A stretch of DNA of 64,000 nucleotides from positions 7,673,882 through 7,737,881 of the forward strand of contig CAJINV010000003.1 of NCBI GenBank assembly GCA_905178155.1. The letters are read 5' to 3'. The notes under the pieces were generated by a model that was not told the DNA's origin, searched no databases, and saw only the letters and a program-made list of their open reading frames with translations. This document shows positions 18,420 to 37,474 of the stretch, one piece after another. This stretch comes from Amoebophrya sp. A120. Lineage: Eukaryota > Protista > Dinoflagellata. Made by a program: the position numbers and the translations under genes. The first letter of the stretch is position 1, and each line of letters opens with the position of its first letter.

Positions 18420-18743
18420 CCGACACCGTACACCCCGCAGCCCAGGGGCCCGCCGGCGCAAAGTACCGCGATCCCGGAGCCCGACGGCGGAAAGGACCGC
18501 ACTCCCGGGGCCGGCCGGCACAAGATACTGCGTCCCGGGGGCCGACTGGCGCAAAATGATGTATCCTCCAGGCTGGAGAGCCCTGGGGCCTGCAGGTGGA
18601 CAATTCCGCAACCACAGGGCCCACCGAAGTACAATATCGCAACCTGAGAGCTTCCCGGCGCAAAGTATCGCAACAAGTGGTCCGCTCCTTGTAAAAGAAT
18701 GACACTGTCGGGCCCACAGCTGGTCCAAAATACTGTGACCTAG
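18420..18743. repeat. Degenerate 31-bp-period GC-rich repeat (left of the LTR element)
   Basis: GGCGCAAAG-like anchors at 18455, 18486, 18517, 18548, then 18595, 18626, 18657. Confidence 0.7.
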
Positions 18744-21700
18744 TGTCAAAATCCTCCCAGATTTCACCAGTAAACCAGCAATAACTGCGAAACTGGCCAA
18801 AACTTTTCTGGCAACAACTTCCACGGGAGCAGTAAAGTTCTGCCAAGGCGAAGCAGGAATACGGGAAGTTTTGGACTTGGTGGATATCTTGCGGCTAAGA
18901 CGTCCGCTGTGGCTGTACTCGGGCGACCGTGCGGCGTGGCTGTATATACACCACACCGCACCAAGGAAGCAGTTACTTGGGGCACTCACTCAGAAAGGTG
19001 GGCCAGGTTTAGCATCTCTTACGGGAGAACGCCATACCTGGTATGCAGACGGTACAGGCATCCGCTGCTACGCGGACAACGTCAAAAATGGTCCAGATAC
19101 CGCGGGAAAGTTTTTCCCCCTTGCCACCGAATTTCCTGCGCGAAGATTCTGGAAAGGTGAAAGCAAGTTGGAAATTGTGTAAGAACGAGGAAACCTGCAG
19201 CGGTTTGCGCGACAGCTGCCGGAAAAGGATCCAGCGTCGTGGGTATCGGGAAGTCAGGAAGAGTCACAATAAGTCTTCTATTGGTGTTTATAAAAAGTCC
19301 CTATTCTTTTCAGGGAACAGCTTCAGGCTTAACAATTAGAAGAGAAAGAGAATAAGTGGCCAACTCTTTTCGAAAAGATCCACGCGTGGAGATCATCTTC
19401 GTGCTTATTTTTTGTGACAAAAAGATGAACTCTTCAGCAAGTTACTCAGAAAAGGAAAAGAAGACGTCTTTATCATCTGTGGAAGCGTCTTCTCATAAAA
19501 AGATCTACACTTTCTGCGTGCGAGCATTGGGCAGATCTTAGCTGCTGTCTCATTGGTTGGCGGTTTTGGTGGTCGTGCTTGTTTTTGAAATTATCATTAA
19601 GAATTTCTTTTCAGGGAAAATCATTTTCAAGCGGCTGTATCTTTCTTCAGGCGACAAAAAGATTTAAGATTGGAGCAAAAGCAAAAAAGTGAATCAACGC
19701 TACTTATTTGAAACAGGCGACACATCTCCACTGCAGTCATTCTTTGCATCCTTTTAAATACAGCGACTATTTACAGCGACAACTTTAAAGCGACTCTCTA
19801 AGCGACATTTTGAAAAAAACTTCCTTTGCTGTATCTCGAAAATAAACCCCAAAGATTAACTTAATCTGACTCCTTCCTGCACGATGCCGCCGAAGGCAAA
19901 GGCCAAGCCCAAGGCAAAGCCGCAGGTGAAGAGGCAGCCACGCAGCCATGGACTGCCTCCAGGACAACAGGCGCTGCCGAATCAGCAGGAACAACAGCCG
20001 CAACAGCAAGGAAATAACGCTGCTGGTCAGCTCCAGACTCCTGCGGGTTTTATCCCTATATTGGATCCGAGTGGTAATCTGGTAGGGATTCAGCAGCTGG
20101 CTCCGGCTGCTCCTGTGATCGCCAACCCCGGGGCTAAACCGAAGGCGGCTAGGGGAAGACCGCGTACGTCTAGTGGACATAAAAGACAGCTAAAGGCAAA
20201 ACGGCAGGCGAGGTGGAAGGAAAAGAAATTCGGGAAGAAGCAGTCAAAGAAGAAAGGAAAAGGGAGAAGGAGAGACGTGCTGTCTGATAGTTCGGAGTCG
20301 GAGGAAGAGAACAACAATTTTTTAGCAATCGAAAACGCACAAGGAGAAGGACTTCTTGCTATCGAGGATATTCCCCGTGACCCTCCGGTTGTCCAAGATG
20401 AAGCCAACGAATACGGCAACCGGTCTCCTGCTTTTGTCCCGGATCAAGGGCAAGAAAACGCAGGAGGAGAAGCACCAAGAAATGCGGGAATTATTAATGT
20501 ATCTATCACTCCGAACACAGGACCGGCTCCGTCCCCGCCTCCACCTCCGGTGTTGATTTTAGGAGCAAGCTCTTCTTCTGGGAGCCAGAATGTAGCACAA
20601 GGACATGCATCGTCTTCATCTTCTGGTGTACCGCGACCATTTCCGCTGCCGCAACTTCGTCCACGTATTCAGCCGAAGGCGAAAATTGGACAGTTGAACA
20701 TGTCCAGGATCAACCGTCTGTGTGCCGGTAAGCCTCCGAGCTCCGGGTCTGATTCTTCAAACAGCTCGGGATCTGACACGTGCACGGAGTCAGATGAGGA
20801 CGAAGAGGAGCACGCAATGCGAAAACAACAAAAATATTTAAACAAGGAAAACAGCAAAAAGCGGAAGCGCGGCTGCAGCTTTGACCGTGAAGAAGAAAGA
20901 GCTGTGCGTCGCGCGGAAACGGAAAGACGTTTTTGGCCTACCTATGGCGAGGATGATGACGAGGAGGAAGAAGAGGAAGAAGAAGGACAAGTGGATCTTC
21001 GTGGTGCAAAGTACGGACCAATTCTAGACATCGGAGATGATTTAAACGACTTTATTGTAGATGATCCTCTTGAAGCAGGAGTGGAAGAAGGAGAGGTGTT
21101 GGAAGACGGAGTTTACGTGTCGACTGTGTACGAAGATGCGCAACTGCGGATCACCATTATTCGTCGACCGGGAGAGCGGTGGCCAAAGGGTCTGCGGGTT
21201 TTCTGGAAGACGTCTAAACCTACGTTGACGTTGGAAGGATACAATCCGGAAAAATTCGACCGGTTTCTGTACCAAACAAAGGACACCGGTTTTGTTGACA
21301 AAACAGAACTCACGGAGTGGGCCCAAGTGATTGTCAACACAATTGACGGGCAGAATCGAACCTGGGATTATTTAACCGACTCTATGGTGGAAAACGACAA
21401 TGTGCTTGATTTTATCAAGTACATGCGGGGCCTTCAAGCAGCAGCTGCCTCCGCTCCTGTGCCCACAGCCTTGGACGAGTTAGATGACCTGTTCGCAGAT
21501 GACAACCCAGTCGCTCCGGCTGCAGTACAACCGTCTCCAACTGCTACTTCAGTTCAGACTTCTACCACGACAACGACTCATGCTCAACCCTCCACAAACA
21601 TCAGTTCAGCTCAGCCTTCGACAAACGTATCAAATACAACTGCGTCTTCATCAGTGGGTACGACGAAGAAAAAGGAGAAAAAGGAAACATTGCTGCCAAC

Positions 21701-24700
21701 CGAGTCAGATGAAGAGGGTGGAGACGAAAATGGGAATGAACCATCTCCAGAACAAGAACTCCCTGCCTCGGTGAGTCCTGAAAAATTAATTGAAGAAATT
21801 ATTTCCCCGACGGAAGCTCAACAAAACTTGACTCGCTTCCTGGGAAATAGCAGTGTCATTGTGGGAGGACGCACATCAGCGAGCGGCAGCAGTGCCAGTA
21901 GCGCTGCCGATGACGACCATCGCTACCCTCCTTTTCAGCTCGGAGAAGACATAGATTGGGATCCCTCCATGCCGTTGCCTGCCCCGTTTCCGACCATCAA
22001 CTCTCCGGCTCACAGTCCAGATGTGCAGCCAGAATCGGCCACGCAGAACGTTCTGCCTTTATCTGATTTGGACCATGCTCTTCCCGATCTGGACATTGCT
22101 ACCCTGGACCACCTGATCAATGTAACCGCGGAATTGGCGGGGCAAGAAAATGAAGACGTTCAAACCGGTTCGTCGCAGCTGCAACAACAGGCGTCTCAGG
22201 TTGAGCCGCTGGATCAGTCGATTTATGAACAAGTGGTGGCTGACCAACAGCTTGCGCTGGCATTGATGCAAGAGGAGCAAGCACTGGGACCGCTGGACAT
22301 TGGCACTACCTTAACGGGGGAGCGGTATAATGCAGATGTGCATCTACAAATCGCACCGAGCCCAGCGATGGCGTTTACTCCGGCATTGTTGCCGGGTGCT
22401 GCATCATCATCGTCTTCCGCGGCGCAGAACCACAACGACTTCCATCACCACAACATTGATCAACATTGGTCGGGAAGGAGACGCTCTAGATCAAGAAGGA
22501 GGCGATCAGTTTCTCGTGGAAGACGCAATAATGGGCTGCTAGCACGACGTACTCCGAGCAAGAAGTGGAGCAAGAGACATGATCCCTCCCACGCGCGGCG
22601 TAGGGAGTGCAAATACTTCTGTCAACTGCATGGTTGGAATACCACGCACGCCAGCGACGACTGTTATCGTCTAAACGACATTACGGAGTATGTGCAGGTA
22701 GAATGGAATCTGTGGGTTCCCTGGCACATCTATTGGAGGGATTACGCACATCTTTATTGGAACAACGCCGACGAGGAATGGAGAGATGAAGCAGTCGCAG
22801 CAGAAAACTCGTACACTCGAGCTCATCCAGAAGAACAAGAACCGGAGGCGGAAGCACCGCCACCCGTTACTCCTGTCGCTGCTCCTCAAGAAGATGTTGT
22901 AATGGAAGACGTGGAAATGGAAAATGCAAACAACAATGATCCCGTCCCGGTGGAGCCAGTGACTCAAGAGCAGCCTTCCGCAGGTGCGCGACGCGGTTCT
23001 CCAATCCCCGAATCCAGCCCGTTGGATGAAGATCGTACCCGTCGTACGTCTTCGGACATGGAGATCGATCTCCCTTCGGAAGGAAGTGATGAGATCTTTG
23101 GGGATGGGCAGGAAAACGAAGAGGAGACGGAAATTGCATCTCCGCCTCCTTCTGCGTCTCCACCTGAAACACAGCTGGCGATCTTTGACCCGGAAGTTAG
23201 AAAGGAGAAGCTGCGGGTTTGGGGATTGAACGTCAACGCTGTCCGATCTACGACGGAACAAATTCGGAACTTGCCGGAGTTCAAGAAAATTCTGGAAAAA
23301 TACGGAACAAATAAGTTCTTGCAGTTGGTCCGCTACGGTTTTAACAAGAACATGGCTTCTTCGCCGGTGATTGGGTTAGTGGATGGGGCCATCGAGCATC
23401 AACGGGAATTGGAGAGCGATGAGCAAATTCCCGCTTCTCCGTCTCCTGGAGATGTAGCTGCACCTCCACAAGAACAAGAAAATGCAGATCAAGAATTAAC
23501 GTCTCCTGACTTGTCACAACAAGGAATTCCCGTGAACAACGTCGCCTCGATCTTGGATGACGCCGTTGGTGCGACGGCTGAAGAGGAAGAAAGCTTTGCA
23601 ATGATGGATGAAATTCCCACGGAAGGACAAGAACAGGCAGAAGACCTTACAAGGATGTATGAAGTTCACACGGGAGATTATCTGCCGATTTTGTTCGGAT
23701 CTCCTGTGTCTCCAGAACAACCTGTTGTTCCATTGTGGTCTGATTTTGTGGAACAGGGAGGAAATGAACAAGAATTGGAAGCTCCGCGTTCTCCAGAAAA
23801 AGACGTCCAAGAAGAATACGAACCAGGTGGTGATGACAGTAATGAGAACGTCGGAAATGCTGACCAGGAGAATCAGCAGGCCAATGATCAGGATCTCGGT
23901 GGAAACAACAACATCGTCGTTCAAAACAACAACGTCGTCGTGCAGGACAATAATCAACAAGTGATTGCAAACATGTCTCCCGCTGTTGATCAAGGAAATA
24001 CGGCAAGCATAGCCGTGCAAACGACGGGCGATGATCAACAGGCGCAAGTAGATAGAGAAATTGATCTTGATGTGCAACCAGGAATTTACAACCTCGCTCC
24101 TGGAACTTACAACGTAAACTTCAGGATCTCGGAAGAGCGGCCCTGCAATATCCAGTAAAAGAACAATTCGTTACCAGCAAGGCAGAATAGAATCATCCGG
24201 AATAACATCAGAAGAATCCAGCAGTAGTCGCGAAAAGACGGGATTGAAGAGATGCGAAAAGGAGATGATTATCCAAAGAAAGATATTCGAACTATCTTCA
24301 GATTAGAGCGTGAGTATAACTATCACATCCTTTTATATCAAATGGGTAGCACTTCTCATTCAATAGATGAAAATCGCTGCTTCAGAAAAGACGTTTTTTC
24401 CAGAACCAAAGCAATACGCGCTTGCATCTACTGAGGCGTAGGATGCTAAGTGATCCATCAATTTCAAATTCCTCGGTAAAGTTTTTTGCTGAAGAACAAC
24501 TTATTGGAAAAAGCAAAGAAATAAAGCTGTCAAATATTCATCGGTGAAGACTGGATTGTCAATACTTGTTTTTTGGTAATAAGAAGAACACTGGGACACA
24601 CAAGTAACAAGACCTATAAAAGACAGCTTAATAAAAAAACTCATTCATCTTTTTGTTTCGCACGATCATCGGGCACAATCTTGAATTTTTATATCTCTCT

Positions 24701-25240
24701 TTTTTGCTGTCGCCCCACAGCCAATTTTTTGTTGGAAGTTTTCGAGGAAGGCAACACGACACTCATGCGGACAGAAAAAATCTCTCATTTTAATCAAAAA
24801 CAGTAGAAGAGATTTTCGTGAAGACGACAACGGCCTTGTTTGTCTGTCTTAACTCGACTTCTAGAACTAATTTCTGAATAAAAAACTGAAAAAAGTAAAA
24901 AACACTGAAAAACCAAAAAAACGCAAAAAATAACCTTGCTTCGCACTCTCGATCGACTCTCTGTTGATCTCCTTCTGGGTAAGGACGAACGGAGACTTAT
25001 CTCCAGTTCGTGTTTTCACAACATCACGGCTTTTAAGAAGAATCGGCTTAATCTGGTCTGACGTGTCGGCTTTATCGTAGGAAGACATTTAAATCGTACA
25101 TTACCTGTTGCCAATCGTATGTCGTTGCAGACGCACAAATAAATCGTCTACTTTCGGTGAACTCGTCCGTCGTTGAGGAGAGCGCTCAGTTGCGGATTTC
25201 TCGGAATTGTTCGATGACCAGTTTTAACCCGTTTCTGACA
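18744..25240 (+). repeat. 5' LTR (6497 bp)
   Basis: Begins TGTCAAAATCCTCCCAG, ends CCCGTTTCTGACA; similarity to 30244-36740 stops at these ends. Confidence 0.92.
19884..24158 (+). CDS. 1424-aa LTR-encoded protein: basic N-terminus, acidic low-complexity body, RS-rich patch plus CHHC zinc-knuckle-like motif
   Basis: Uninterrupted ATG-TAA ORF, intact in both LTRs; FCQLHGWNTTHASDDC at ~22617-22664. Confidence 0.85.
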   Translation: MPPKAKAKPKAKPQVKRQPRSHGLPPGQQALPNQQEQQPQQQGNNAAGQLQTPAGFIPILDPSGNLVGIQQLAPAAPVIANPGAKPKAARGRPRTSSGHKRQLKAKRQARWKEKKFGKKQSKKKGKGRRRDVLSDSSESEEENNNFLAIENAQGEGLLAIEDIPRDPPVVQDEANEYGNRSPAFVPDQGQENAGGEAPRNAGIINVSITPNTGPAPSPPPPPVLILGASSSSGSQNVAQGHASSSSSGVPRPFPLPQLRPRIQPKAKIGQLNMSRINRLCAGKPPSSGSDSSNSSGSDTCTESDEDEEEHAMRKQQKYLNKENSKKRKRGCSFDREEERAVRRAETERRFWPTYGEDDDEEEEEEEEGQVDLRGAKYGPILDIGDDLNDFIVDDPLEAGVEEGEVLEDGVYVSTVYEDAQLRITIIRRPGERWPKGLRVFWKTSKPTLTLEGYNPEKFDRFLYQTKDTGFVDKTELTEWAQVIVNTIDGQNRTWDYLTDSMVENDNVLDFIKYMRGLQAAAASAPVPTALDELDDLFADDNPVAPAAVQPSPTATSVQTSTTTTTHAQPSTNISSAQPSTNVSNTTASSSVGTTKKKEKKETLLPTESDEEGGDENGNEPSPEQELPASVSPEKLIEEIISPTEAQQNLTRFLGNSSVIVGGRTSASGSSASSAADDDHRYPPFQLGEDIDWDPSMPLPAPFPTINSPAHSPDVQPESATQNVLPLSDLDHALPDLDIATLDHLINVTAELAGQENEDVQTGSSQLQQQASQVEPLDQSIYEQVVADQQLALALMQEEQALGPLDIGTTLTGERYNADVHLQIAPSPAMAFTPALLPGAASSSSSAAQNHNDFHHHNIDQHWSGRRRSRSRRRRSVSRGRRNNGLLARRTPSKKWSKRHDPSHARRRECKYFCQLHGWNTTHASDDCYRLNDITEYVQVEWNLWVPWHIYWRDYAHLYWNNADEEWRDEAVAAENSYTRAHPEEQEPEAEAPPPVTPVAAPQEDVVMEDVEMENANNNDPVPVEPVTQEQPSAGARRGSPIPESSPLDEDRTRRTSSDMEIDLPSEGSDEIFGDGQENEEETEIASPPPSASPPETQLAIFDPEVRKEKLRVWGLNVNAVRSTTEQIRNLPEFKKILEKYGTNKFLQLVRYGFNKNMASSPVIGLVDGAIEHQRELESDEQIPASPSPGDVAAPPQEQENADQELTSPDLSQQGIPVNNVASILDDAVGATAEEEESFAMMDEIPTEGQEQAEDLTRMYEVHTGDYLPILFGSPVSPEQPVVPLWSDFVEQGGNEQELEAPRSPEKDVQEEYEPGGDDSNENVGNADQENQQANDQDLGGNNNIVVQNNNVVVQDNNQQVIANMSPAVDQGNTASIAVQTTGDDQQAQVDREIDLDVQPGIYNLAPGTYNVNFRISEERPCNIQ

Positions 25241-25255
25241 TGGTGAGGCCAGAGC
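25241..25255 (+). other. Candidate primer-binding site TGGTGAGGCCAGAGC
   Basis: TGG (complement of tRNA CCA) immediately follows the 5' LTR; cognate tRNA not identified. Confidence 0.6.
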
Positions 25256-25470
25256 TAGTGTTGACCACTAGCTGATAGCAACCACGTGATACAGGACAAG
25301 GAGACAACGTTTTCTCCTACACGTTTGCAACCTGTTGGACTCCTTCATCACCATCATTTTCACCTTCAACGGAGAAGCAGGATTTGTTCGACTCCATCAG
25401 CAGAGAAGGACAGACTCTCCTACTTTTCCAATTTTGAGATTTTGATGCACTACAAGGCCGTTCTGCGTAC

Positions 25471-26565
25471 ATGAACTTCAACTTGCCTCCAGCTGACCAC
25501 CTCACATTTCCCAACTTGCCCAATTCTGTTGAACCTCGAGAAGTAATTGAGCCTTGCGCTATCTTTTTCGGTAACTGCCCGGTCGGAGATCCCAGATATC
25601 TATTTTCCCACAACTCAGTTCCGTACGTGGTCAATTTGGACGAGCGAGCAGATCTTCGGATTCCCGGACGACGCGGAACTTTGTTATTGCCAACTGAACA
25701 CGTAGTCGATCTAATAGATCCGATTGCTCGGAAAGCAAACAATCAATTTTTGAACTGGACCTACGACCGCAACGCATTCGTTGTGTTGACAACCTTCAGT
25801 AGCAAGGAAGAATACCTGGCAAGTACCTTTCGGAGAACCCACCACTTGCGTGCTGACCAAGCAGACCGATTTGTGACGGAGAGTCGACGAGTCGTGCTTG
25901 CCTGGCCGATTCGGTGGTGCCAAGTGAGGACTCCGCAGAGAAGACAACAAGTCAACGGCGACTCTATCATCGGCTTTTCCACCATCCAACGGCATCTTCC
26001 TGAGTGGTGCATTCCTCCGGAAGACGCTAATACGGAGACGCAAATAAGGACTATTCCGTCTAGTGAAGATCGAGAAGTTAGAGCACAATTGCACGAAGGT
26101 CCTCCAACTACTACACCGGTCCATCGTTTAATCGCACCAGAAGACGCTCAAAGAATTGCTGCTCCTGCACCAACTTCCTTTTCGCTATCAAGAACCCTCG
26201 AGTTGGTGTACGGTCAATTAGCACCTACCTTTCCCCGGACCCTGGCTGACCAAGACAGATTCTTTGATCTCATCGGTTTGGGCGACAGACCATCATCGTC
26301 ACCATCGAATCAAAGATCGTCTCCGCCCCGGGAGGGAACCCCAAGACCGTATACCGCTCCGCGTCCTCAAACGCCTCTCCGCGTCCCATCGGAGAACGTT
26401 TGCATCATTTGCTTGGAGCAAGAAGCCAATGCAACCTTCCTCCATCGGTTCACTGGACACACGTGCTGTTGCTTTCGCTGCGCTCAGCAGGCCTTTGAGC
26501 GGGACCGCAGGTGTCCAATTTGTCGGATGCAAGTAGACCGGGTGATTAAAAACTATCGGAGTTAA
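25471..26565 (+). CDS. Element cargo: 364-aa protein with C-terminal MDM2-type C2H2C4 RING (putative E3 ligase)
   Basis: CIIC-x10-H-x4-H-x3-C-x2-C-x10-CPIC-RMQVDRVIKNYRS* at 26401-26565. Confidence 0.85.
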   Translation: MNFNLPPADHLTFPNLPNSVEPREVIEPCAIFFGNCPVGDPRYLFSHNSVPYVVNLDERADLRIPGRRGTLLLPTEHVVDLIDPIARKANNQFLNWTYDRNAFVVLTTFSSKEEYLASTFRRTHHLRADQADRFVTESRRVVLAWPIRWCQVRTPQRRQQVNGDSIIGFSTIQRHLPEWCIPPEDANTETQIRTIPSSEDREVRAQLHEGPPTTTPVHRLIAPEDAQRIAAPAPTSFSLSRTLELVYGQLAPTFPRTLADQDRFFDLIGLGDRPSSSPSNQRSSPPREGTPRPYTAPRPQTPLRVPSENVCIICLEQEANATFLHRFTGHTCCCFRCAQQAFERDRRCPICRMQVDRVIKNYRS

Positions 26566-26597
26566 GAAGAAAAGGAAAGAAGGAGACGGAAAAGTAT

Positions 26598-27176
26598 ATG
26601 TGGTATTTGATCGTCGATCAATCCAAACCATTACAACTACATCTTCAAGATTCTTCCCACAGTAAATCCAACGGTACCAAGTGCGGGTGGATATTGTTGA
26701 CCGTAAAGGACGAGCTCTGCATTCAACGGATTGTCTTTCCTCGAGAAGTGATTATCATTTTCCGCTCACATCTGGAAGAAGACCCGGAATCCCTTGGAGT
26801 TTGGGACGCACTGCTACAGATAAGAATTCTGGCTCGCTTTGCGTCAGTAGTCGTCTGCTACATTAAAGGACAATTCTACTTCACTCCCTTGCACTACGCG
26901 ACGGAAACAGCAGGACTGGGATCAGTAAGATTGCACTACATTCCGCGAGTAAAATTCCCGGAAAAGATCTCTGGTTTCTACCAGTCTGCAGTGGTAAGGA
27001 TAAACGAACTTCGGTGCCCGGACGTAATCGACTACAACGTTCTCAGTTACTCGAAGAAGACCTTGCAGCTGACAGGAAAAATCAATCGGACCCTCACGCA
27101 CCCTTTTTCGTATTCCAGTGTGAAGAACATTAAAGACGGCTACACCTGGAATTACGAGCCGGAACCAGAAGAATAA
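26598..27176 (+). CDS. Element cargo: 192-aa hypothetical protein
   Basis: ATG-initiated intronless ORF 32 nt after the RING ORF; globular-looking composition. Confidence 0.6.
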   Translation: MWYLIVDQSKPLQLHLQDSSHSKSNGTKCGWILLTVKDELCIQRIVFPREVIIIFRSHLEEDPESLGVWDALLQIRILARFASVVVCYIKGQFYFTPLHYATETAGLGSVRLHYIPRVKFPEKISGFYQSAVVRINELRCPDVIDYNVLSYSKKTLQLTGKINRTLTHPFSYSSVKNIKDGYTWNYEPEPEE

Positions 27177-27198
27177 ACCGTCTTCATCATAATGCTAC

Positions 27199-28104
27199 AT
27201 GGCTGATTACTCTCTCGACCTGAGACTATTCTTCGGATTACCAATAAGGGTGAATCGGGAAAACATCAGTAAAAGAACCGGTCTTCCAGGAATTCTAGCG
27301 GGGATCAGTACACGCGAGTACCTACGCTGTGGATTCCAAGGGCAACAACTCATTGGAGACCCAGAAGTACACGAGGAGTTACAAAAAACAGATTTGTTCG
27401 TCTTCTTGGAAAAGTCTCTCTGTGAAGGACTTTTGGTTTACCCGACTACAGGCGGAAAGCAACATAGATTCATCCGGGTGGCACCGTTGGAGTTTGTACA
27501 GCTGAACCGTAGTTCAGCGGCAACCTGTATTTCGCAAGCAGGCGAGCAACTCTTCTTGAGGAACATAAATCCTCTGTGCAACATCTGTGACGGCTCGCTG
27601 ATAATCCTGAACAAAGATCACCCGGAGGGATGAGAAAACAACTACTGCTTCGCCACACTCAAGCACGCATTGTTCTTGGCGTATCGGTGTAGGAGACCCC
27701 TTAAACCGCGAGAAAATTTCCAGAGAGTTCACTTCCGTGAAGAACCAGACGAAGAACAAGTGGACGACATACCAATCACGAGCAAGGAGGTAGCAAGAAT
27801 AAAATCGGAGCCGGTGATACCAAAGAACTACAACGCCTTTGAAAGCGACCCGTACTGTCAGTTCATTCACGACTCGGGAGCACCATTTCAAGCCATCAAT
27901 TTTGAGTGCGCTCTCGTACCGGAAATTCCGAATTTTATCAACCACTACAGCCATCCAGGTCGCCTCGGTTACTACCACAACGCACCATCGGAACCTTCAG
28001 TGAGTAACTACACTGGGACTCGGTCAGACGACTCGTTTCGGTCAAGCATTCGTAGCTTTAGGACAGCTCGTGCAATCCACTACATCGAAAACGGATACAG
28101 CTAA
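27199..28104 (+). CDS. Element cargo: ~301-codon frame interrupted by one in-frame TGA (27631-27633)
   Basis: ORFs 27199-27633 and 27670-28104 share a frame: ...CNICDG...HPEG*ENNYCFATLKHALFLAY... Confidence 0.55.
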
Positions 28105-28411
28105 GCTTCAGTTTTATGCTTTCCGCAATACTAGACTTCTTCGTCGACCTACTAGAAGAAGCAAAAAGAACAATCATACTCGGTATTGACGAAGCGATTA
28201 CATTCGTTCAATCCGCGCGCTAAAAGAACAAAGAAGACGGAAAAATCAGTACGCACAACTACAATTGGGCTAAAGGCTACGGACAACACTTTCGTGCGAT
28301 CAGGAGAAACATCGTACAGCAAGACGTTAAACAACAAACGGAATAAAATATCTTCAACAGCAACAACTACTTCAACAGTTCCCTCGTATTAAAACGACTC
28401 CCACATACAAC

Positions 28412-28647
28412 ATGTGTTGTTTTGAATTTCTCAACCGGGTGTTTAACACCAAAGCCTACCAAATCCAACAGCAGGCCGAATTGGAAGAAAAGATGAAGAT
28501 GATCGACGCTGCTGTTGAAGAATCCCTCAAGAAACACCGCACCCCATCCAAAAGACGGTCTAATCAGACGGAAGAAGATGATTTTTCTGCTGTTTCTCCA
28601 GGACCGCAACCCACTCCCATTTGCGTGGAAGTTGAGGAAGACGATGA
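28412..28647 (+). CDS. Element ORF start (MCCFEF..., coiled-coil-like), truncated by assembly gap
   Basis: ATG at 28412, open until the N run; link to pol across the gap unproven. Confidence 0.5.
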
Positions 28648-28747
28648 NNNNNNNNNNNNNNNNNNNNNNNNNNNNNNNNNNNNNNNNNNNNNNNNNNNNN
28701 NNNNNNNNNNNNNNNNNNNNNNNNNNNNNNNNNNNNNNNNNNNNNNN
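28648..28747. other. Assembly gap (100 N, probably placeholder length)
   Basis: Run of exactly 100 N. Confidence 0.99.
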
Positions 28748-30772
28748 CAAGAACTCGGACAACTCCACAGTGCGAAGCGGCAAGTAGAAGAGCAAAAAGA
28801 CGGAGAAATGGATTCGGATGGTGATCAAGACGGTTTGTACAGTATCACTTCGCGTGAGCTGGTAACCGATCTCACCAGTCTACATGAGTCTCATCCTCAC
28901 CGTTTTCTACTTGGAGCCGTAGGAATACACGTGGATGATTTGTTGACAGCAGGATCTGAACTTGTTTACCTTCGTCTTCAGATTTTGTTTGACATGTTCG
29001 ACGTCTCGGGACTCGCAATGTTGCAGTTAGGAAAAAGAGACGCTTTTGTCGGGAAGGAAATAGCCTGTCTTCCGGAAGCATTTGATGCTTATGAAGTTAA
29101 ACAGGAACTGGAAGAGGAGGTCAAGTTCTTGAAAGCCATTGAGTTTGAAAATCCGGAGCCCTTGTTTACCGTTAACTACACCGAAGAACAAATTGCGGAA
29201 GTAGAAAAAGCAACAGGTTTGAAGAGAAGCAACAAAGCAGAAGATTTACCTGCGGTGGAGCCAGTACCATTCACCTTTGAAGCTGCCGCAGAACGTCTTC
29301 GACCAACAATTCCTGTTTTTTACGTCCTCAGTCAAGAATCCTATGTGGAAAAGATAAAGTGTTTGGAACGGGAAGAGGTAGAGGAGTACTGGAGGAAGAG
29401 GTCATTTGCAAAGAATAAGTTTGCGTTGAGTCAAATCAAATCACCTTTTCGGGGAAGAATTGGCGAGCTTCTTTGGTGCACAAAGACGTCAGCGGTGTTA
29501 TTAGAACGTCTCTCGGACCTAGCAAGCGCGGTCCACTTGATGGAGAACTACAACACCTACGTGGAGGAAGTAGAACAATTCTGCGAGCGGCTGAACTCGT
29601 TCATCCTCTTTGCTCAGGGAAGTCAGTTTTGCTCTAGAAGAATCTCCCACACTGGCGGTTTGGGAGAATTCGGGGTGGTTGGATTAGCAGACGCATCCAA
29701 GACCAAGATTGGGGGTTTGGTCTGCCTTGCGGGACGAAACTCACAACGTGTCACGCCGATTACATCATGGAGCAAAGCTCCAAATCGTGTCTTTTCCAGT
29801 TCAACCGGAATTGAACTGTTGGCACAGCGGATCCTAGTGTCGGAGTGTTTGTGGCACAAACAAATTGGAATTGACCTGTCTCTCGTTCCGTACGACATGC
29901 CTCTCCTGCAATTCACGGACTCGAAGAACTTGGTGATCAGTGATCCTTCGGAGAAAAATTTGAAGTCGGACTTCTTGTTTTTAAACCAACTTTTGGAACT
30001 CAAACAGTTGGCAGTGGAACACACGCGTGGAAAAACAATGCCACCAGACGCGCTGACAAAGAGTCCGCTGTACTCCGAGGTTGCTACCCTTCACCTTGTG
30101 AACAGGTTTGGAATCCTAGATCGGGAACTGAGTAATCGGATTAGCACGTTCATAAGCCAGAACCTAGAACGACTCCAGGACCTCGACTCTGGCAACAAGA
30201 CGGAAAAGCCCCCAGTTTCGCAGCTACAAGAAGAAAATATTGGTGTCAAAATCCTCCCAGATTTCACCAGTAAACCAGCAATAACTGCGAAACTGGCCAA
30301 AACTTTTTTGACAACAACTTCTACGGGAGCAATAAAGTTTTGCCAAGGCGAAGCAGGAATACGGGGAATTTTGGATTTGGTGGATATCTTGCGGTTAAGA
30401 CGTCCGCTGTGGCTGTACTCGGGTGACCGTGCGGCGTGGCTGTATATACACCACACCGCACCAAGGAAGCAGTTATTCGGGGCACTCACTCAGAAAGGTG
30501 GGCCAGGTTTAGCATCTCTTACGGGAGAACGCCATACCTGGTATGCAGACGGTACAAGCATCCGTTGCTACACGGACAACATCAAAAATGGTCCAGATAC
30601 CGCGGGAAAGTTTTTCCCCCTTGCCACCGAATTTCCTGCGCGAAGATTCTGGAAAGGTGAAAGCAAGTTGGAAATTGTGGAAGAACGAGGAAACCTGCAG
30701 CGGTTTGCGCGACAGCTGCCGGAAAAGGATCCAGCGTCGGGGGTATCGGGAAGTCAGGAAGAGTCACAATAA
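28748..30772 (+). CDS. pol: Copia-type Pol C-terminal part: RT (C-terminal half), RNase H and extension into the 3' LTR
   Basis: GIHVDDLL (HVDD at 28928-28939), FVGKEI, LSQESYVEKI, FRGRIGELLW, GLADAS, WSKAPNRVFSSSTGIE, FTDSKNL, MPPDALTK. Confidence 0.88.
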   Translation, partial: QELGQLHSAKRQVEEQKDGEMDSDGDQDGLYSITSRELVTDLTSLHESHPHRFLLGAVGIHVDDLLTAGSELVYLRLQILFDMFDVSGLAMLQLGKRDAFVGKEIACLPEAFDAYEVKQELEEEVKFLKAIEFENPEPLFTVNYTEEQIAEVEKATGLKRSNKAEDLPAVEPVPFTFEAAAERLRPTIPVFYVLSQESYVEKIKCLEREEVEEYWRKRSFAKNKFALSQIKSPFRGRIGELLWCTKTSAVLLERLSDLASAVHLMENYNTYVEEVEQFCERLNSFILFAQGSQFCSRRISHTGGLGEFGVVGLADASKTKIGGLVCLAGRNSQRVTPITSWSKAPNRVFSSSTGIELLAQRILVSECLWHKQIGIDLSLVPYDMPLLQFTDSKNLVISDPSEKNLKSDFLFLNQLLELKQLAVEHTRGKTMPPDALTKSPLYSEVATLHLVNRFGILDRELSNRISTFISQNLERLQDLDSGNKTEKPPVSQLQEENIGVKILPDFTSKPAITAKLAKTFLTTTSTGAIKFCQGEAGIRGILDLVDILRLRRPLWLYSGDRAAWLYIHHTAPRKQLFGALTQKGGPGLASLTGERHTWYADGTSIRCYTDNIKNGPDTAGKFFPLATEFPARRFWKGESKLEIVEERGNLQRFARQLPEKDPASGVSGSQEESQ

Positions 30773-33700
30773 ATCTTTTATTGATGTTTATAAAAAGTCT
30801 CTATTCTTTTCAGGGAACAACTTCAGGTTTAACAATTAGAAGAGAAAGAGAATAAGTGATCAATTCCTTTCGAAAAGATCCACGTGTGAAGATCATCTTC
30901 GTGCTTATTTTTTGTGACAAAAAGATGAATTCTTCAGCAAGTTATTCAGAAAAGGAAAAGAAGACGTCTTTATCATCTGTGGAAGCGTCTTCTCATAAAA
31001 AGATCTACACTTTCCGCGTGCGAACATTGGACAGATCTTAACTGCTGTTTCATTGGTTGGTGGTTTTGGTGGTCGTACTTGTTTTTGAAATTATCATTAA
31101 AAATTTCTTTTCAGGGAAAATCATTTTCAAACGGCTGTATCTTTCTTTAGGCGACAAAAAGATTTAAGATTGGAGTAAAAACAAAAAAGTGAATCAACAC
31201 TACTTATTTGAAACAAGCGACGCATCTCTATTGCAATCATTCTTTACATCCTTTTAAATACAGCGACTATTTACAACGACAACTTTAAAGCGACTCTTTA
31301 AGCGACATTTTGAAAAAACTTCCTTTGCTGTATCTCGAAAATAAACCCCAAAGATTAACTTAATCTGACTCCTTCCTGCACGATGCCGCCGAAGGCAAAG
31401 GCCAAGCCCAAGGCAAAGCCGCAGGTGAAGAGGCAGCCACGCAACCAAGGACTGCCTCCAGGACAACAGGCGCTGCCGAATCAGCAGGAACAACAGCCGC
31501 AACAGCAAGGAAATAACGCTGTTGGTCAGTTCCAGATTCCTGCGGGTTTTATCCCTATATTGGATCCGAGTGGTAATCTGGTAGGGATTCAGCAGCTGGC
31601 TCCGGCTGCTCCTGTGATCGCCAACCCCGGGGCTAAACCGAAGGCGGCCAGGGGAAGACCGCGTACGTCTAGTGGACATAAAAGACAGTTAAAGGCCAAA
31701 CGGCAGGCGAGGTGGAAGGAAAAGAAATTCGGGAAGAAGCAGTCAAAGAAGAAAGGAAAAGGGAGAAGGAAAAACGTGCTGTCTGATAGTTCGGAGTCGG
31801 AGGAAGAGAACAACAATTTTTTAGCAATCGAAAACGCACAAGGAGAAGGACTTCTTGCTATCGAGGATATTCCCCGTGACCCTCCGGTTGTCCAAGATGA
31901 AGCCAACGAATACGGCAACCGGTCTCCTGCTTTTGTCCCGGATCAAGGGCAAGAAAACGCAGGAGGAGAAGCACCAAGAAATGCGGGAAATATTAATGTA
32001 TCTATCACTCCGAACACAGGACCGGCTCCGTCCCCGCCTCCACCTCCGGTGTTGATTTTAGGAGCAAGCTCTTCTTCCGGGAACCAGAATGTAGCACAAG
32101 GACAAGCATCATCTTCATCTTCTGGTGTACCACGACCATTTCCGCTGCCGCAACTTCGTCCACGTATTCAGCCGAAGGCGAAAAATGGACAGTTGAACAT
32201 GTCCAGGATCAACCGTCTGTGTGCCGGTAAGCCTCCGAGCTCCGGGTCTGATTCTTCAAACAGCTCGGGATCTGACACGTGCACGGAGTCAGATGAGGAC
32301 GAAGAGGAGCACGCAATGCGAAAACAACAAAAATATTTAAACAAGGAAAACAGCAAAAAGCGGAAGCGCGGCTGCAGCTTTGACCGTGAAGAAGAAAGAG
32401 CTGTGCGTCGCGCGGAAACGGAAAGACGTTTTTGGCCTACCTATGGCGAGGATGATGACGAGGAGGAAGAAGAGGAAGAAGAAGGACAAGTGGATCTTCG
32501 TGGTGCAAAGTACGGACCAATTCTAGACATCGGAGATGATTTAAACGACTTTATTGTAGATGATCCTCTTGAAGCAGGAGTGGAAGAAGGAGAGGTGTTG
32601 GAAGACGGAGTTTACGTGTCGACTGTGTACGAAGATGCGCAACTGCGGATCACCATTATTCGTCGACCGGGAGAGCGGTGGCCAAAGGGTCTGCGGGTTT
32701 TCTGGAAGACGTCTAAACCTACGTTGACGTTGGAAGGATACAATCCGGAAAAATTCGACCGGTTTCTGTACCAAACAAAGGACACCGGTTTTGTTGACAA
32801 AACAGAACTCACGGAGTGGGCCCAAGTGATTGTCAACACAATTGACGGGCAGAATCGAGCCTGGGATTATTTAACCGACTCTATGGTGGAAAACGACAAT
32901 GTGCTTGATTTTATCAAGTACATGCGGGGCCTTCAAGCAGCAGCTGCCTCCGCTCCTGTGCCCACAGCCTTGGACGAGTTAGATGACCTGTTCGCAGATG
33001 ACAACCCAGTCGCTCCGGCTGCAGTGCAACCGTCTCCAACTGCTACTTCAGTTCAGACTTCTACCACGACAACGACTCATGCTCAACCCTCCACAAACAT
33101 CAGTTCAGCTCAGCCTTCGACAAACGTATCAAATACAACTGCGTCTTCATCAGTGGGTACGACGAAGAAAAAGGAGAAAAAGGAAACATTGCTGCCAACC
33201 GAGTCAGATGAAGAGGGTGGAGACGAAAATGGGAATGAACCATCTCCAGAACAAGAACTCCCTGCCTCGGTGAGTCCTGAAAAATTAATTGAAGAAATTA
33301 TTTCCCCGACGGAAGCTCAACAAAACTTGACTCGCTTCCTGGGAAATAGCAGTGTCATTGTGGGAGGACGCACATCAGCGAGCGGCAGCAGTGCCAGTAG
33401 CGCTGCCGATGACGACCATCGCTACCCTCCTTTTCAGCTCGGAGAAGACATAGATTGGGATCCCTCCATGCCGTTGCCTGCCCCGTTTCCGACCATCAAC
33501 TCTCCGGCTCACAGTCCAGATGTGCAGCCAGAATCGGCCACGCAGAACGTTCTGCCTTTATCTGATTTGGACCATGCTCTTCCCGATCTGGACATTGCTA
33601 CCCTGGACCACCTGATCAATGTAACCGCGGAATTGGCGGGGCAAGAAAATGAAGACGTTCAAACCGGTTCGTCGCAGCTGCAACAACAGGCGTCTCAGGT

Positions 33701-36700
33701 TGAGCCGCTGGATCAGTCGATTTATGAACAAGTGGTGGCTGACCAACAGCTTGCGCTGGCATTGATGCAAGAGGAGCAAGCACTGGGACCGCTGGACATT
33801 GGCACTACCTTAACGGGGGAGCGGTATAATGCAGATGTGCATCTACAAATCGCACCGAGCCCAGCGATGGCGTTTACTCCGGCATTGTTGCCGGGTGCTG
33901 CATCATCATCGTCTTCCGCGGCGCAGAACCACAACGACTTCCATCACCACAACATTGATCAACATTGGTCGGGAAGGAGACGCTCTAGATCAAGAAGGAG
34001 GCGATCAGTTTCTCGTGGAAGACGCAATAATGGGCTGCTAGCACGACGTACTCCGAGCAAGAAGTGGAGCAAGAGACATGATCCCTCCCACGCGCGGCGT
34101 AGGGAGTGCAAATACTTCTGTCAACTGCATGGTTGGAATACCACGCACGCCAGCGACGACTGTTATCGTCTAAACGACATTACGGAGTATGTGCAGGTAG
34201 AATGGAATCTGTGGGTTCCCTGGCACATCTATTGGAGGGATTACGCACATCTTTATTGGAACAACGCCGACGAGGAATGGAGAGATGAAGCAGTCGCAGC
34301 AGAAAACTCGTACACTCGAGCTCATCCAGAAGAACAAGAACCGGAGGCGGAAGCACCGCCACCCGTTACTCCTGTCGCTGCTCCTCAAGAAGATGTTGTA
34401 ATGGAAGACGTGGAAATGGAAAATGCAAACAACAATGATCCCGTCCCGGTGGAACCAGTGATTCAAGAGCAGCCTTCCGCAGGTGCGCGACGCGGTTCTC
34501 CAATCCCCGAATCCAGCCCGTTGGATGAAGATCGTACCCGTCGTACGTCTTCGGACATGGAGATCGATCTCCCTTCGGAAGGAAGTGATGAGATCTTTGG
34601 GGATGGGCAGGAAAACGAAGAGGAGACGGAAATTGCATCTCCGCCTCCTTCTGCGTCTCCACCTGAAACACAGCTGGCGATCTTTGACCCGGAAGTTAGA
34701 AAGGAGAAGCTGCGGGTTTGGGGATTGAACGTCAACGCTGTCCGATCTACGACGGAACAAATTCGGAACTTGCCGGAGTTCAAGAAAATTCTGGAAAAAT
34801 ACGGAACAAATAAGTTCTTGCAGTTGGTCCGCTACGGTTTTAACAAGAACATGGCTTCTTCGCCGGTGATTGGGTTAGTGGATGGGGCCATCGAGCATCA
34901 ACGGGAATTGGAGAGCGATGAGCAAATTCCCGCTTCTCCGTCTCCTGGAGATGTAGCTGCACCTCCACAAGAACAAGAAAATGCAGATCAAGAATTAACG
35001 TCTCCTGACTTGTCACAACAAGGAATTCCCGTGAACAACGTCGCCTCGATCTTGGATGACGCCGTTGGTGCGACGGCTGAAGAGGAAGAAAGCTTTGCAA
35101 TGATGGATGAAATTCCCACGGAAGGACAAGAACAGGCAGAAGACCTTACAAGGATGTATGAAGTTCACACGGGAGATTATCTGCCGATTTTGTTCGGATC
35201 TCCTGTGTCTCCAGAACAACCTGTTGTTCCATTGTGGTCTGATTTTGTGGAACAGGGAGGAAATGAACAAGAATTGGAAGCTCCGCGTTCTCCAGAAAAA
35301 GACGTCCAAGAAGAATACGAACAAGGTGGTGATGACAGTAATGAGAACGTCGGAAATGCTGACCAGGAGAATCAGCAGGCCAATGATCAGGATTTCGGTG
35401 GAATCAACAACTTCGTCGTTCAAAACAACAGCGTCGTCGTGCAGGACAATAATCAACAAGTGATTGCAAACATGTCTCCCGCTGTTGATCAAGGAAATAC
35501 GGCAAGCGTAGCCGTGCAAACGACGGGCGATGATCAACAGGCGCAAGTAGATGGAGAAATTGATCTTGATGTGCAGCCAGGAATTTACAACCTCGCTCCT
35601 GGAACTTACAACGTAAGCTTCAGGATCTCGGAAGAGCGGTCCTGCGTTATCCAGTAAAAGAGCAATTCGTTACCAGCAAGGCAGAATAGAATCATCCGGA
35701 ATAACATCAGAAGAGTCCAGCAGTAGTCGCGAAAAGACGGGATTGAAGAGATGTGAAAAGGAGATGATTATCCAAAGAAAGATATTCGAATTATCTTCAG
35801 ATTAGAACGCGAGTATAACTATCACATCCTTTTATATCAAATGGGTAGTGCTTCTCATTCAATAGATGAAAGTCGCTGTTTCAGAAAAGACGTTTTTTCC
35901 AGAACCAAAGCAATACGCGCTTGCATCTACTGAGACGTAGGATGCTAAGTGATCCATCAATTTCAAATTCCTCGGCAAAGTTTTTTGCTGAAGAACAACT
36001 TATTGGAAAAAGCAAAGAAGTAAAACTGTCAAATATTCATCGGTGAAGACTGGATTGCCAATACTTGTTTTTTGGTAATAAGAAGAACACTGGGACACAC
36101 AAGTAACAAGACCTATAAAAGACAGCTTAATAAAAAAAACTCATTCAGCTTTTTGCTTCGCACGATCATCGGGTACAATCTTGAGTTTTTATATCTCTCT
36201 TTTTTGCTGTCGCCCCACAGCCAATTTTTTGTTGGAAGTTTTCGAGGAAGGCAACACGACATTCATGCGGACAGAAAAAATCTCTCATTTCAATCAAAAA
36301 CAGTAGAAGAGATTTTCGTGAAGACGACAGCGGCCTTGTTTGTCTGTCTTAACTCGACTTCTAGAACTAATTTCTGAATAAAAAACTGAAAAAAGTAAAA
36401 AACACTTAAAAACCAAAAAAACACAAAAAATAACCTTGCTTCGCACTCTCGATCGACTCTCTGTTGATCTCCTTCTGGGTAAGGACGAGCGGAGACTTAT
36501 CTCCAGTTCGTGTTTTCACAACGTCACGGCTTTTAAGAAGAATCGGCTTAATCTGGTCTGACGTGTCGGTTTTATCGTAGGAAGACATTTAAATCGTACA
36601 TTACCTGTTGCCAATCGTATGTCGTTGCAGACGCACAAATAAATCGTCTACTTTCGGTGAACTCGTCCGTCGTTGAGGAGAGCGCTCAGTTGCGGATTTC

Positions 36701-36740
36701 TCGGAATTGTTCGATGACCAGTTTTAGCCCGTTTCTGACA
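30244..36740 (+). repeat. 3' LTR (6497 bp)
   Basis: Copy of 18744-25240; preceded by a weak purine tract AAGAAGAAAA (30228-30237); followed by TSD CCTAG. Confidence 0.92.
31383..35657 (+). CDS. Second copy of the 1424-aa LTR-encoded protein
   Basis: Same length, near-identical to 19884-24158; substitutions mainly near the termini. Confidence 0.85.
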   Translation: MPPKAKAKPKAKPQVKRQPRNQGLPPGQQALPNQQEQQPQQQGNNAVGQFQIPAGFIPILDPSGNLVGIQQLAPAAPVIANPGAKPKAARGRPRTSSGHKRQLKAKRQARWKEKKFGKKQSKKKGKGRRKNVLSDSSESEEENNNFLAIENAQGEGLLAIEDIPRDPPVVQDEANEYGNRSPAFVPDQGQENAGGEAPRNAGNINVSITPNTGPAPSPPPPPVLILGASSSSGNQNVAQGQASSSSSGVPRPFPLPQLRPRIQPKAKNGQLNMSRINRLCAGKPPSSGSDSSNSSGSDTCTESDEDEEEHAMRKQQKYLNKENSKKRKRGCSFDREEERAVRRAETERRFWPTYGEDDDEEEEEEEEGQVDLRGAKYGPILDIGDDLNDFIVDDPLEAGVEEGEVLEDGVYVSTVYEDAQLRITIIRRPGERWPKGLRVFWKTSKPTLTLEGYNPEKFDRFLYQTKDTGFVDKTELTEWAQVIVNTIDGQNRAWDYLTDSMVENDNVLDFIKYMRGLQAAAASAPVPTALDELDDLFADDNPVAPAAVQPSPTATSVQTSTTTTTHAQPSTNISSAQPSTNVSNTTASSSVGTTKKKEKKETLLPTESDEEGGDENGNEPSPEQELPASVSPEKLIEEIISPTEAQQNLTRFLGNSSVIVGGRTSASGSSASSAADDDHRYPPFQLGEDIDWDPSMPLPAPFPTINSPAHSPDVQPESATQNVLPLSDLDHALPDLDIATLDHLINVTAELAGQENEDVQTGSSQLQQQASQVEPLDQSIYEQVVADQQLALALMQEEQALGPLDIGTTLTGERYNADVHLQIAPSPAMAFTPALLPGAASSSSSAAQNHNDFHHHNIDQHWSGRRRSRSRRRRSVSRGRRNNGLLARRTPSKKWSKRHDPSHARRRECKYFCQLHGWNTTHASDDCYRLNDITEYVQVEWNLWVPWHIYWRDYAHLYWNNADEEWRDEAVAAENSYTRAHPEEQEPEAEAPPPVTPVAAPQEDVVMEDVEMENANNNDPVPVEPVIQEQPSAGARRGSPIPESSPLDEDRTRRTSSDMEIDLPSEGSDEIFGDGQENEEETEIASPPPSASPPETQLAIFDPEVRKEKLRVWGLNVNAVRSTTEQIRNLPEFKKILEKYGTNKFLQLVRYGFNKNMASSPVIGLVDGAIEHQRELESDEQIPASPSPGDVAAPPQEQENADQELTSPDLSQQGIPVNNVASILDDAVGATAEEEESFAMMDEIPTEGQEQAEDLTRMYEVHTGDYLPILFGSPVSPEQPVVPLWSDFVEQGGNEQELEAPRSPEKDVQEEYEQGGDDSNENVGNADQENQQANDQDFGGINNFVVQNNSVVVQDNNQQVIANMSPAVDQGNTASVAVQTTGDDQQAQVDGEIDLDVQPGIYNLAPGTYNVSFRISEERSCVIQ

Positions 36741-36859
36741 CCTAGGCACCCAATAGTGGAAAACATTGCACCCATTTTGGCGCGTTGACGGAAAAAAATG
36801 CATTGTAACGGCCATCGCAGCTCTTTCATTGGAAAATCCTACAATTGGAAGGTTGGGCA

Positions 36860-37470
36860 GCACATATATTGCGCAGCTTGTGGCTGAGTGGCAAGATTTT
36901 CTGCGGCGCGCTGACCAACTTCCAAGATGTTGCGTGGTTCTTTCGCCAGCTGGCAAGATTTTCTGCTGCAAGGCCGCCAGCTGGCGAGATTTTGTAGAGC
37001 ACGGCGGCCAGCTAGCAAGATTTTGTGTGGTCAGGCGGCCAATTCACCAGATTTTACGCGACGAGGCGACCCGGACAGAAGATTTCGCGCGGTGTGGCGA
37101 CCGGCTCGCAAGATCTTGTGCGGCCACGCGGCCAGCTGGCTAGATTCTGTGCGGTGGGGCGGCCAGGTGGCGAGAGTTTTTGCAGAGGGGTAGCCAACTC
37201 GTGCGACTGCGCGCGGCGGGCAGCCGGCTGGCAAGATTTTCTGCGGCAAGGTAGTCGGCTGTCAAAATTTGGGACGGCAGCGCAAGGGCACTCGGCTGGC
37301 AAGATTTTGGGCGGCGGGGCTGGCAGCCGGCGAGATTGTGCGCCACAGGACGGCAAGCTGGAGAGATTTTGCACAGTGTGGCGGCAAGCTTGTCAGATTG
37401 TGCACGACGGGGCAGCCAGCTGGCAAGATTTTGCGCAGTGGGGTTGCCAGCTGGCAAGATTTTGTGCCCC
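36860..37470. repeat. Degenerate 31-bp tandem repeat (~19 units, core GCCAGCTGGCAAGATTTT)
   Basis: TGGCAAGATT-like anchors at 36889, 36920, 36951, 36982, 37013 ... 37452. Confidence 0.85.
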
Positions 37471-37474
37471 GCCT

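Follow-up and report, generated by a model that had tools for sequence, protein, structure and literature searches.

An MDM2-type RING finger in the 5'-proximal open reading frame of a copia-like LTR retrotransposon from Amoebophrya sp. A120

Introduction

Long terminal repeat (LTR) retrotransposons with additional open reading frames (ORFs) are well known, as the available portions of PMC7264820 and, for the elements of bdelloids, of PMC5408684 describe. MDM2, whose RING finger is the closest solved counterpart of the one discussed here, has a four-domain make-up according to the available part of PMC8901663. Here we describe a window of 64,000 nucleotides from the dinoflagellate Amoebophrya sp. 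A120 (assembly GCA_905178155.1, contig CAJINV010000003.1, positions 7,673,882 to 7,737,881 of the forward strand), in which a young, low-copy, copia-like LTR retrotransposon carries a 5'-proximal ORF that ends in a RING finger of the MDM2 type and that we call the RING ORF. RING E3 ubiquitin ligases brought along by a genetic parasite are familiar from DNA viruses, where herpesvirus ICP0, the baculovirus IAPs and poxvirus p28 have shown targets.

Results

The RING ORF reads without interruption from its ATG to a TAA (Table 1), and its C-terminus is NVCIICLEQEANATFLHRFTGHTCCCFRCAQQAFERDRRCPICRMQVDRVIKNYRS. Eight ligands, C311, C314, H325, H330, C334, C337, C348 and C351, follow the spacing C-x2-C-x10-H-x4-H-x3-C-x2-C-x10-C-x2-C, FTGH precedes the second histidine, and the short tail ends in VIKNYRS*. 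The C2H2C4 spacing, the TGH motif and the tail reported by an earlier reading made from the letters alone (hereafter the sequence-only reading) were thus borne out by reading the ORF and by alignment. A profile check agrees: the Pfam family PF13920 (zf-C3HC4_3) matches residues 308-358 over profile positions 2-49 of 49 with 41.2 bits (E 1.4e-10), where the curated cut-off is 27 bits, and the match to zf-RING_2 is far weaker. A looser form of the RING pattern matches a single place among the six translated frames of the window, and 0 of 100 block shuffles contain it. The length of the 364-codon frame is by itself weaker evidence than this pattern, because the longest open frames of the 100 shuffles average 262 codons and reach 623.

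Among solved structures the nearest relatives are MDM2 itself. In a sequence search of PDB chains the 14 best distinct sequences were all MDM2 RINGs (E 2.2e-9 to 5e-8), the next three were MDM4, and MUL1, MYLIP, cIAP1/2, synoviolin and COP1 came after these. The alignment to MDM2 runs without a gap from the first cysteine to Y362, with 54-64 residues aligned, and it keeps both the arginine after the last cysteine and a tyrosine (Y362) third from a C-terminus of equal length. In RINGs of the MDM2 type, a short tail that is aromatic at the third position from its end has a role in dimerisation and activity. Spacing, tail and best solved relatives all support the assignment to the MDM2/MDMX subtype that the sequence-only reading had made. 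The resemblance is confined to the RING. No match to the p53-binding (SWIB/MDM2) domain was found, residues 1-310 being without a Pfam match even at E up to 10, and Pfam gave no RanBP2-type C4 zinc finger in the RING ORF. Because the other domains of MDM2 are absent, we regard the ORF as carrying an MDM2-type RING and not as an MDM2 orthologue.

The RING has many relatives outside the PDB. A phmmer pass over 1.84 billion cluster representatives (E up to 1e-3) returned 1,343 matches to the RING ORF, the best at E 1.9e-14, and the best 150 of these all lie on the C-terminal part of the query. Within the best 150 the exact C2H2C4 spacing is present in 144; a tail of 11-14 residues past the last cysteine is found in 134 of those 144, and an aromatic residue at position -3, where the query has Y362, in 86. 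Across an alignment of 40 sequences the eight ligands and P349 are invariant, and R352, V358 and I359 occur in at least 90%. Those matches that carry a record come from marine metatranscriptomes, the Marine Microbial Eukaryote Transcriptome Sequencing Project (MMETSP) and Amoebophrya sp. A25; one is named 'E3 ubiquitin-protein ligase Mdm2' by its source, and another (P0014, 380 aa) is animal-MDM2-like, with a RanBP2-type finger discernible by eye. Its spacing and tail place the RING in a family of proteins that is large among marine protists.

Even the best RING relative shares no more than 42-53% identity with the query across about 60 residues, so any capture from the cellular MDM2-like family was not recent. 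In a tree of 76 RING segments and 58 columns the query lies inside no supported clade and outside the supported clade of P0014, so the tree singles out no donor. The sequence-only reading had asked whether the nearest homologues belong to hosts or to giant viruses. The RING groups by spacing and tail with the cellular family of marine protists; no giant-virus relative was found in scans of viral contigs, made with the whole ORF and with a 7-sequence RING alignment, which reach close relatives only.

The first 300 residues gave a different picture. A word-indexed protein search with the whole ORF returned no match, and none of the best 150 of the 1,343 phmmer matches extends before residue 231, bar one alignment of P0014 to the N-terminal side, at 26% identity in a low-complexity stretch. 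The ESM Atlas held no usable match to residues 1-300, and scans of JGI metagenome contigs with the RING ORF, aimed at close relatives, found none. One third of residues 161-305 are proline, serine or threonine, and by this composition they look like a linker.

The ORF lies within an element with well-defined borders. In a self-BLAST of the window one long direct repeat stands out, in which 18743-25240 pairs with 30243-36740 and 98.2% of positions are identical, and a MAFFT alignment of the two LTRs counts 114 substitutions and 2 single-base gaps. The paired LTRs with their TG..CA ends, the CCTAG duplication, a stretch resembling a primer binding site (PBS) and a purine-rich tract together identify a true LTR retrotransposon, which spans 18744-36740 and measures 17,997 bp as assembled. 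The window contains no transfer RNA genes, so it offers no primer match for the PBS, and it contains no second copy of the element. The sequence-only reading had called the RING ORF the first gene after the PBS, and this stands: the 5' LTR ends at 25240, TGGTGAGGCCAGAGC begins at 25241, the RING ORF begins 230 nt downstream of the PBS, and the sole ORF between the two is an upstream ORF (uORF) of 9 codons.

To gauge copies and joints, contigs of one DNA sequencing run (X1) were placed on the window. This run matches the flanks perfectly and may be the source of the assembly, and it is not independent of it. The contigs bear on the suggestion that the RING ORF is no part of the element at all, being host DNA between two separate LTRs or the product of an assembly chimera, which we consider very unlikely indeed. 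The interior does contain a gap of 100 N (28648-28747), and the X1 contigs differ from the window at 72 sites over 7 kb, so assembly of the repeat is imperfect. However, an identical 5-bp duplication flanks the LTR pair, a PBS-like stretch and a purine tract sit at the expected places, the leader and the start of the ORF are linked by X1 contigs (25294-25525), as are its end and the next ORF (26230-26767), and depth is raised about threefold over the whole interior.

Each of the two LTRs carries an intact ORF of 1,424 codons, with no Pfam match and no significant PDB match. Between its copies in the two LTRs, 9 changes are synonymous and 24 non-synonymous. By eye, it has an arginine-rich, basic stretch followed by C-x3-C-x8-H-x4-C, which resembles a nucleocapsid. 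An AATAAA lies downstream of the LTR ORF, at 24877; with this signal downstream, the LTR ORF would sit in U3 or R and would be copied to both ends in each cycle. The differences between the LTRs are unevenly spread: the initial 2 kb has 70 of them and the final 1.5 kb has 40, against 4 in the central 3 kb (20744-23743), a pattern that gene conversion, selection or assembly collapse could produce. At 71 sites the 5' LTR has C or G where the 3' LTR has T or A, and at 30 sites the direction is the opposite.

Two further orphan ORFs follow the RING ORF, neither of them with a Pfam or PDB relative. The third ORF starts 22 nt past the stop of the second, and in the row of three consecutive interior ORFs each ATG lies 22-33 nt beyond the preceding stop, a tidiness that, from the arrangement of the frames, looks like kept genes rather than decay. 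The third ORF is closed early by a TGA in the window; the X1 contig over that position (depth 59.5) has G at 27631, which makes it a sense codon. Near the end of the RING ORF lies an imperfect -1 slippery-like heptamer, and the -1 frame is open from 26550 on into the second orphan ORF; the RNA downstream folds no better than shuffles (z 0.25). A -1 slip from the RING ORF into the second ORF would be possible on paper and is a weak lead.

Past these ORFs lies a copia-like pol frame. Its pol tail (28835-30178), containing the C-terminal part of reverse transcriptase (RT) and RNase H, matches two polyproteins of Amoebophrya sp. AT5.2 by tblastn, P0162 with 41% identity (E 1e-81) and P0163 with 36% (E 2e-55). 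P0162 has its integrase (rve, 413-498) before its reverse transcriptase (RVT_2, 1420-1576), which is the copia order, with both Pfam scores below the cut-off; in P0163, likewise at scores below the cut-off, rve also precedes RVT_2. The ESM Atlas points from the pol tail to RVT_2 clusters with a score of 0.92. The tail itself has no Pfam match and nothing significant in a PDB sequence search, and a scan of metagenome contigs with a 3-sequence pol alignment found nothing. Compared with P0162 and P0163, the upstream ORFs, the peptide before the gap and the LTR ORF gave nothing below E 0.04. Beyond the point where P0162 ends (about 30200), the pol frame continues for 176 codons of the 3' LTR; its counterpart in the 5' LTR is shorter by about 30 codons, with a stop at 19180.

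At least the integrase and the front of the RT are missing from the assembled sequence and fall in the 100-N gap. P0162 has about 1,300 residues between its integrase and the RT motif at which the window sequence resumes, and X1 contigs extend 652 and 876 nt into the gap; from this spacing and these contigs, the true element is probably several kb longer than assembled.

These features bear on whether the RING ORF could be the element's own Gag-like protein, with an N-terminal region that builds the particle and a RING that replaces the CCHC knuckle in handling RNA. The sequence-only reading had noted that it sits where gag normally starts. As a matter of position this holds, the RING ORF being the first ORF after the PBS; that it stands in for gag does not follow, and two more orphan ORFs come next, with a pol frame from 28412 that enters the gap. 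No other gag is recognisable between the PBS and the gap, and the RING of MDM2 does bind RNA. Even so we judge a Gag-like role decidedly improbable, because no Pfam gag or knuckle family matches the ORF even at E up to 10, the basic stretch and C-x3-C-x8-H-x4-C of the LTR ORF are more nucleocapsid-like, and the true gag may lie in the gap, P0163 having about 1,200 residues ahead of its integrase. A single-sequence AlphaFold model of the RING ORF mixes strands and helices with long coil and is not an all-helical capsid, although its predicted local distance difference test (pLDDT) of 33.8 makes it too poor to count.

Table 1. Positions of the element's features in the window (position 1 is its first nucleotide)
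Feature	Position	Strand	Remarks
5' target-site duplication CCTAG	18739-18743	.	same 5 bases directly after the 3' LTR
5' LTR, 6,497 bp	18744-25240	+	TG...CA, ends ...CTGACA; self-BLAST, MAFFT
LTR ORF, 1,424 codons	19884-24158 and 31383-35657	+	intact in both LTRs
PBS-like stretch TGGTGAGGCCAGAGC...	25241-25258	+	TGG adjoins the terminal CA of the LTR
uORF, 9 codons (MHYKAVLRT)	25446-25475	+	read from sequence; its TGA overlaps the ATG of the RING ORF (ATGA)
RING ORF, 364 codons	25471-26565	+	ATG to TAA, intact; orphan residues 1-300 and C-terminal MDM2-type RING
RING finger (C311-C351) and 13-residue C-terminal tail (R352-S364)	26401-26562	+	last 54 residues
U_AAA_AAC, imperfect -1 slippery-like heptamer	26547-26553	+	read from sequence; 10 nt upstream of the RING ORF stop
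Second orphan ORF, 192 aa	26598-27176	+	ATG 32 nt past the RING ORF stop
Third orphan ORF	27199-28101	+	144 aa to TGA at 27631-27633, frame then open to 28101
Pol-frame ORF	28412-30772	+	frame open from 28331; crosses the N gap; stop lies 529 nt into the 3' LTR
C-terminal RT and RNase H region, copia-order pol	28835-30178	+	tblastn to P0162 and P0163
Purine-rich tract AAGAAGAAAATATTGG	30228-30243	+	read from sequence; directly before the 3' LTR
3' LTR, 6,497 bp	30244-36740	+	self-BLAST, MAFFT
3' target-site duplication CCTAG	36741-36745	.	directly after the 3' LTR

Discussion

Judging from the residues of its RING and from its place in the element, we consider it somewhat probable that the RING ORF encodes an element-borne accessory protein acting as a RING E3 ubiquitin ligase rather than a Gag. 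Hypothetically, the large cellular MDM2-like family of marine protists supplied the RING at some point in the past, and the RING was joined to an orphan region of 300 residues whose task would be substrate choice. The cistron for this protein would be the 5'-proximal one, ahead of the two orphan ORFs and the gag-pol frame, and from this leading position the protein would be translated better than any other product of the full-length RNA. Through its RING it would recruit a host ubiquitin-conjugating enzyme (E2), probably as a dimer held together by the C-terminal tail as in MDM2. Its substrate for ubiquitination would be a host factor limiting the element, or else a protein of the element itself. 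The two following ORFs might be reached by reinitiation or, if the host trans-splices, by spliced-leader processing into separate mRNAs. For the lineage, rather than for this window, the available part of PMC7789003 gives a truncated dinoflagellate spliced leader (DinoSL) on 18.5-37.8% of Amoebophrya transcripts.

In a more specific version of this hypothesis the transposon would have placed a counter-defence ligase of its own in the most strongly translated position, ahead of gag-pol, and the orphan region of that protein would tag a silencing or restriction factor of the host for degradation. The sequence-only reading had proposed such a target by analogy with viral RING ligases. We regard the choice of a silencing or restriction factor as speculation, and the counter-defence version as a whole as rather improbable.

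The main limits of the ligase reading are that it concerns a single young family and that ligase activity is a prediction from the sequence. Three RNA runs (X5-X7) placed 0 reads on the element and likewise 0 on 18 kb of flanking genes, bar 91 partial X5 reads on a 32-nt repeat, and because the flanking genes are equally without reads these runs are no test of expression.

A number of observations weigh against a ligase kept by the element. The searches made detected no relative of residues 1-300 that would speak for conservation beyond the young family, and the AlphaFold model of the RING ORF is too poor for a reading of its fold. The single-sequence model of the third ORF, made with its TGA as X, is unusable at a pLDDT of 29.0. 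Scored against the codon usage of the flanking genes, the RING ORF does best in its own frame but only at -0.06, compared with +0.17 for the pol tail and +0.12 for the LTR ORF. P0162 and P0163 show no RING, although an upstream ORF would fall outside those gene models. The remaining points concern the copies. Of the 72 differences between the window and the X1 contigs, 32 are outside those listed, and 6 of the listed ones fall in the RING ORF, 2 synonymous and 4 non-synonymous, without a stop; a ratio of 2:4 shows no purifying selection. With copies about 99% alike, the intact frame could be a matter of mere youth. Finally, the summed depth of X1 contigs, on which our view of the copies is built, is not the same as copy number.

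With that caveat, summed X1 depth is 23.5-28 over the flanking genes, which are covered by contigs of 8.9 and 17 kb with 0 differences, 67-78 over the RING ORF, 48-139 over the rest of the interior and 105-218 over the LTRs. On the element the contigs are short, with few differences each, and no indels within 25241-30243 are among the X1 differences listed. This depth suggests about three near-identical full-length copies, with two LTRs each and all with the RING ORF. At the LTR ends, the sequence of four X1 contigs continues into letters unlike those of the PBS or purine-tract side, which suggests other insertion sites, although some may be this copy's own flanks. The sequence-only reading had made retention of the ORF in other copies a check on its claim. 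Depth suggests that all of the roughly three copies retain it, but because the copies are about 99% alike, retention of the frame says little about selection.

The 72 differences have a pattern of their own. T in place of A or A in place of T is entirely one-sided, with T>A 19 times and A>T 0 times; of 15 T>A sites read in context, C follows directly at 9, and another 4 are the leading T of a TTC. Over 15 kb of flanking sequence the long X1 contigs show 0 differences. The bias could come from variation among the copies or from an artefact of polishing within the repeat.

The copies and their differences bring in the most serious competitor of the ligase reading, according to which the RING ORF is a passenger, that is, part of a RING gene of the host, or several host fragments joined into a chimera, picked up once by template switching or read-through, copied a few times and without function for the element. 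The likely host lineage has many cellular genes for MDM2-like RINGs, among them that of a 597-aa Amoebophrya protein (P0008), depth points to no more than about three near-identical copies, the searches found no diverged relative with the RING ORF, and the listed differences stand at 4 non-synonymous to 2 synonymous. Base composition speaks the other way. The RING ORF has a GC content of 0.51 and a GC content at third codon positions (GC3) of 0.49, the other element ORFs have GC3 of 0.48-0.55, and nine flanking ORFs have GC of 0.53-0.62 and GC3 of 0.56-0.83. In other words, the composition of the RING ORF fits the element and not the flanking genes, and the ORF is not a fresh copy of a host gene. 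Since its depth is not above that of its neighbours in the element, a near-identical cellular copy is absent from X1, and the distance to the best RING relative speaks against a recent uptake. The frame is also whole, with its ATG, all ligands and the tail, in a tidy row of three ORFs. We consider a mere passenger unlikely, yet a serious possibility, and continue to favour the accessory ligase.

Neighbouring sequence

Two frames outside the element are ordinary eukaryotic host genes with GC3 well above that of the element: 52796-54700 matches Pfam Dynactin_p62 (E 6.5e-7) and 55136-56314 matches Mpv17_PMP22 (E 9.5e-11). From 200 nt past the element's 3' end, 36945-38167 holds G+C-rich tandem arrays with periods of 31, 42, 59 and 17 nt.

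Further downstream, 57187-57458 is an element of 272 bp with 37-nt terminal inverted repeats that are 95% complementary. Its summed X1 depth is 30,000-134,000, against about 25 for single-copy sequence. The stretches 56850-57160 and 46125-46160 go with it, and many X1 contigs join 46160 to 57190-57192. The 91 X5 RNA reads mentioned above fall in this part of the window, and a core of 32 nt is framed by loose ends at 57192 and 57223. This looks like a very high-copy element similar to a miniature inverted-repeat transposable element (MITE) or an introner.

Comparison with known systems

The RING of this element shares with those of MDM2 and MDMX/MDM4 (PDB 7ahy, 2vje, 5mnj) the C2H2C4 ligands, their spacing, a gapless alignment, the arginine after the last cysteine and the tyrosine at -3. 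Unlike MDM2, the RING ORF has no p53-binding domain, no acidic region and no RanBP2-type finger. The MDM2-like RING proteins of marine protists, from environmental samples, MMETSP and Amoebophrya sp. A25 (CAD7972359.1), have a RING of the same subtype, likewise C-terminal and with a tail of 11-14 residues, but their N-terminal regions are unrelated to that of the RING ORF.

The viral RING ligases have in common with this case a genetic parasite that brings its own RING ligase, and no homology is implied beyond the RING fold family; the cIAP RINGs are only weak PDB matches to the query (E 8e-4 to 3e-3). If the RING ORF is functional, then retrotransposons, like large DNA viruses, can bring their own ligase instead of hijacking that of the host, and the element would give a handle on the conflict between hosts and transposons in syndinean or dinoflagellate-like protists, about which we know of nothing reported. 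If it is a passenger only, it is a case of ordinary gene capture.

Our literature search returned no LTR element described with its own RING ligase; the matches concerned the host proteins TRIM5, TRIM28 and UHRF1 acting on retroelements. A term search of the text of a paper on Symbiodinium copia-like elements (PMC5776459) found no mention of RING or ubiquitin, and 'RING finger' had 0 occurrences by term count in the available portions of PMC7264820 and PMC5408684. The elements of those two sources, so far as those portions describe them, resemble the present one in having an extra protein-coding ORF inside a gag-pol element. Here, in contrast, the extra ORFs lie upstream of pol, right after the PBS, and the cargo is a RING. 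This comparison suggests that the element is of a known sort, an LTR element with an extra gene, and that a predicted RING ligase as its cargo is new in the literature searched.

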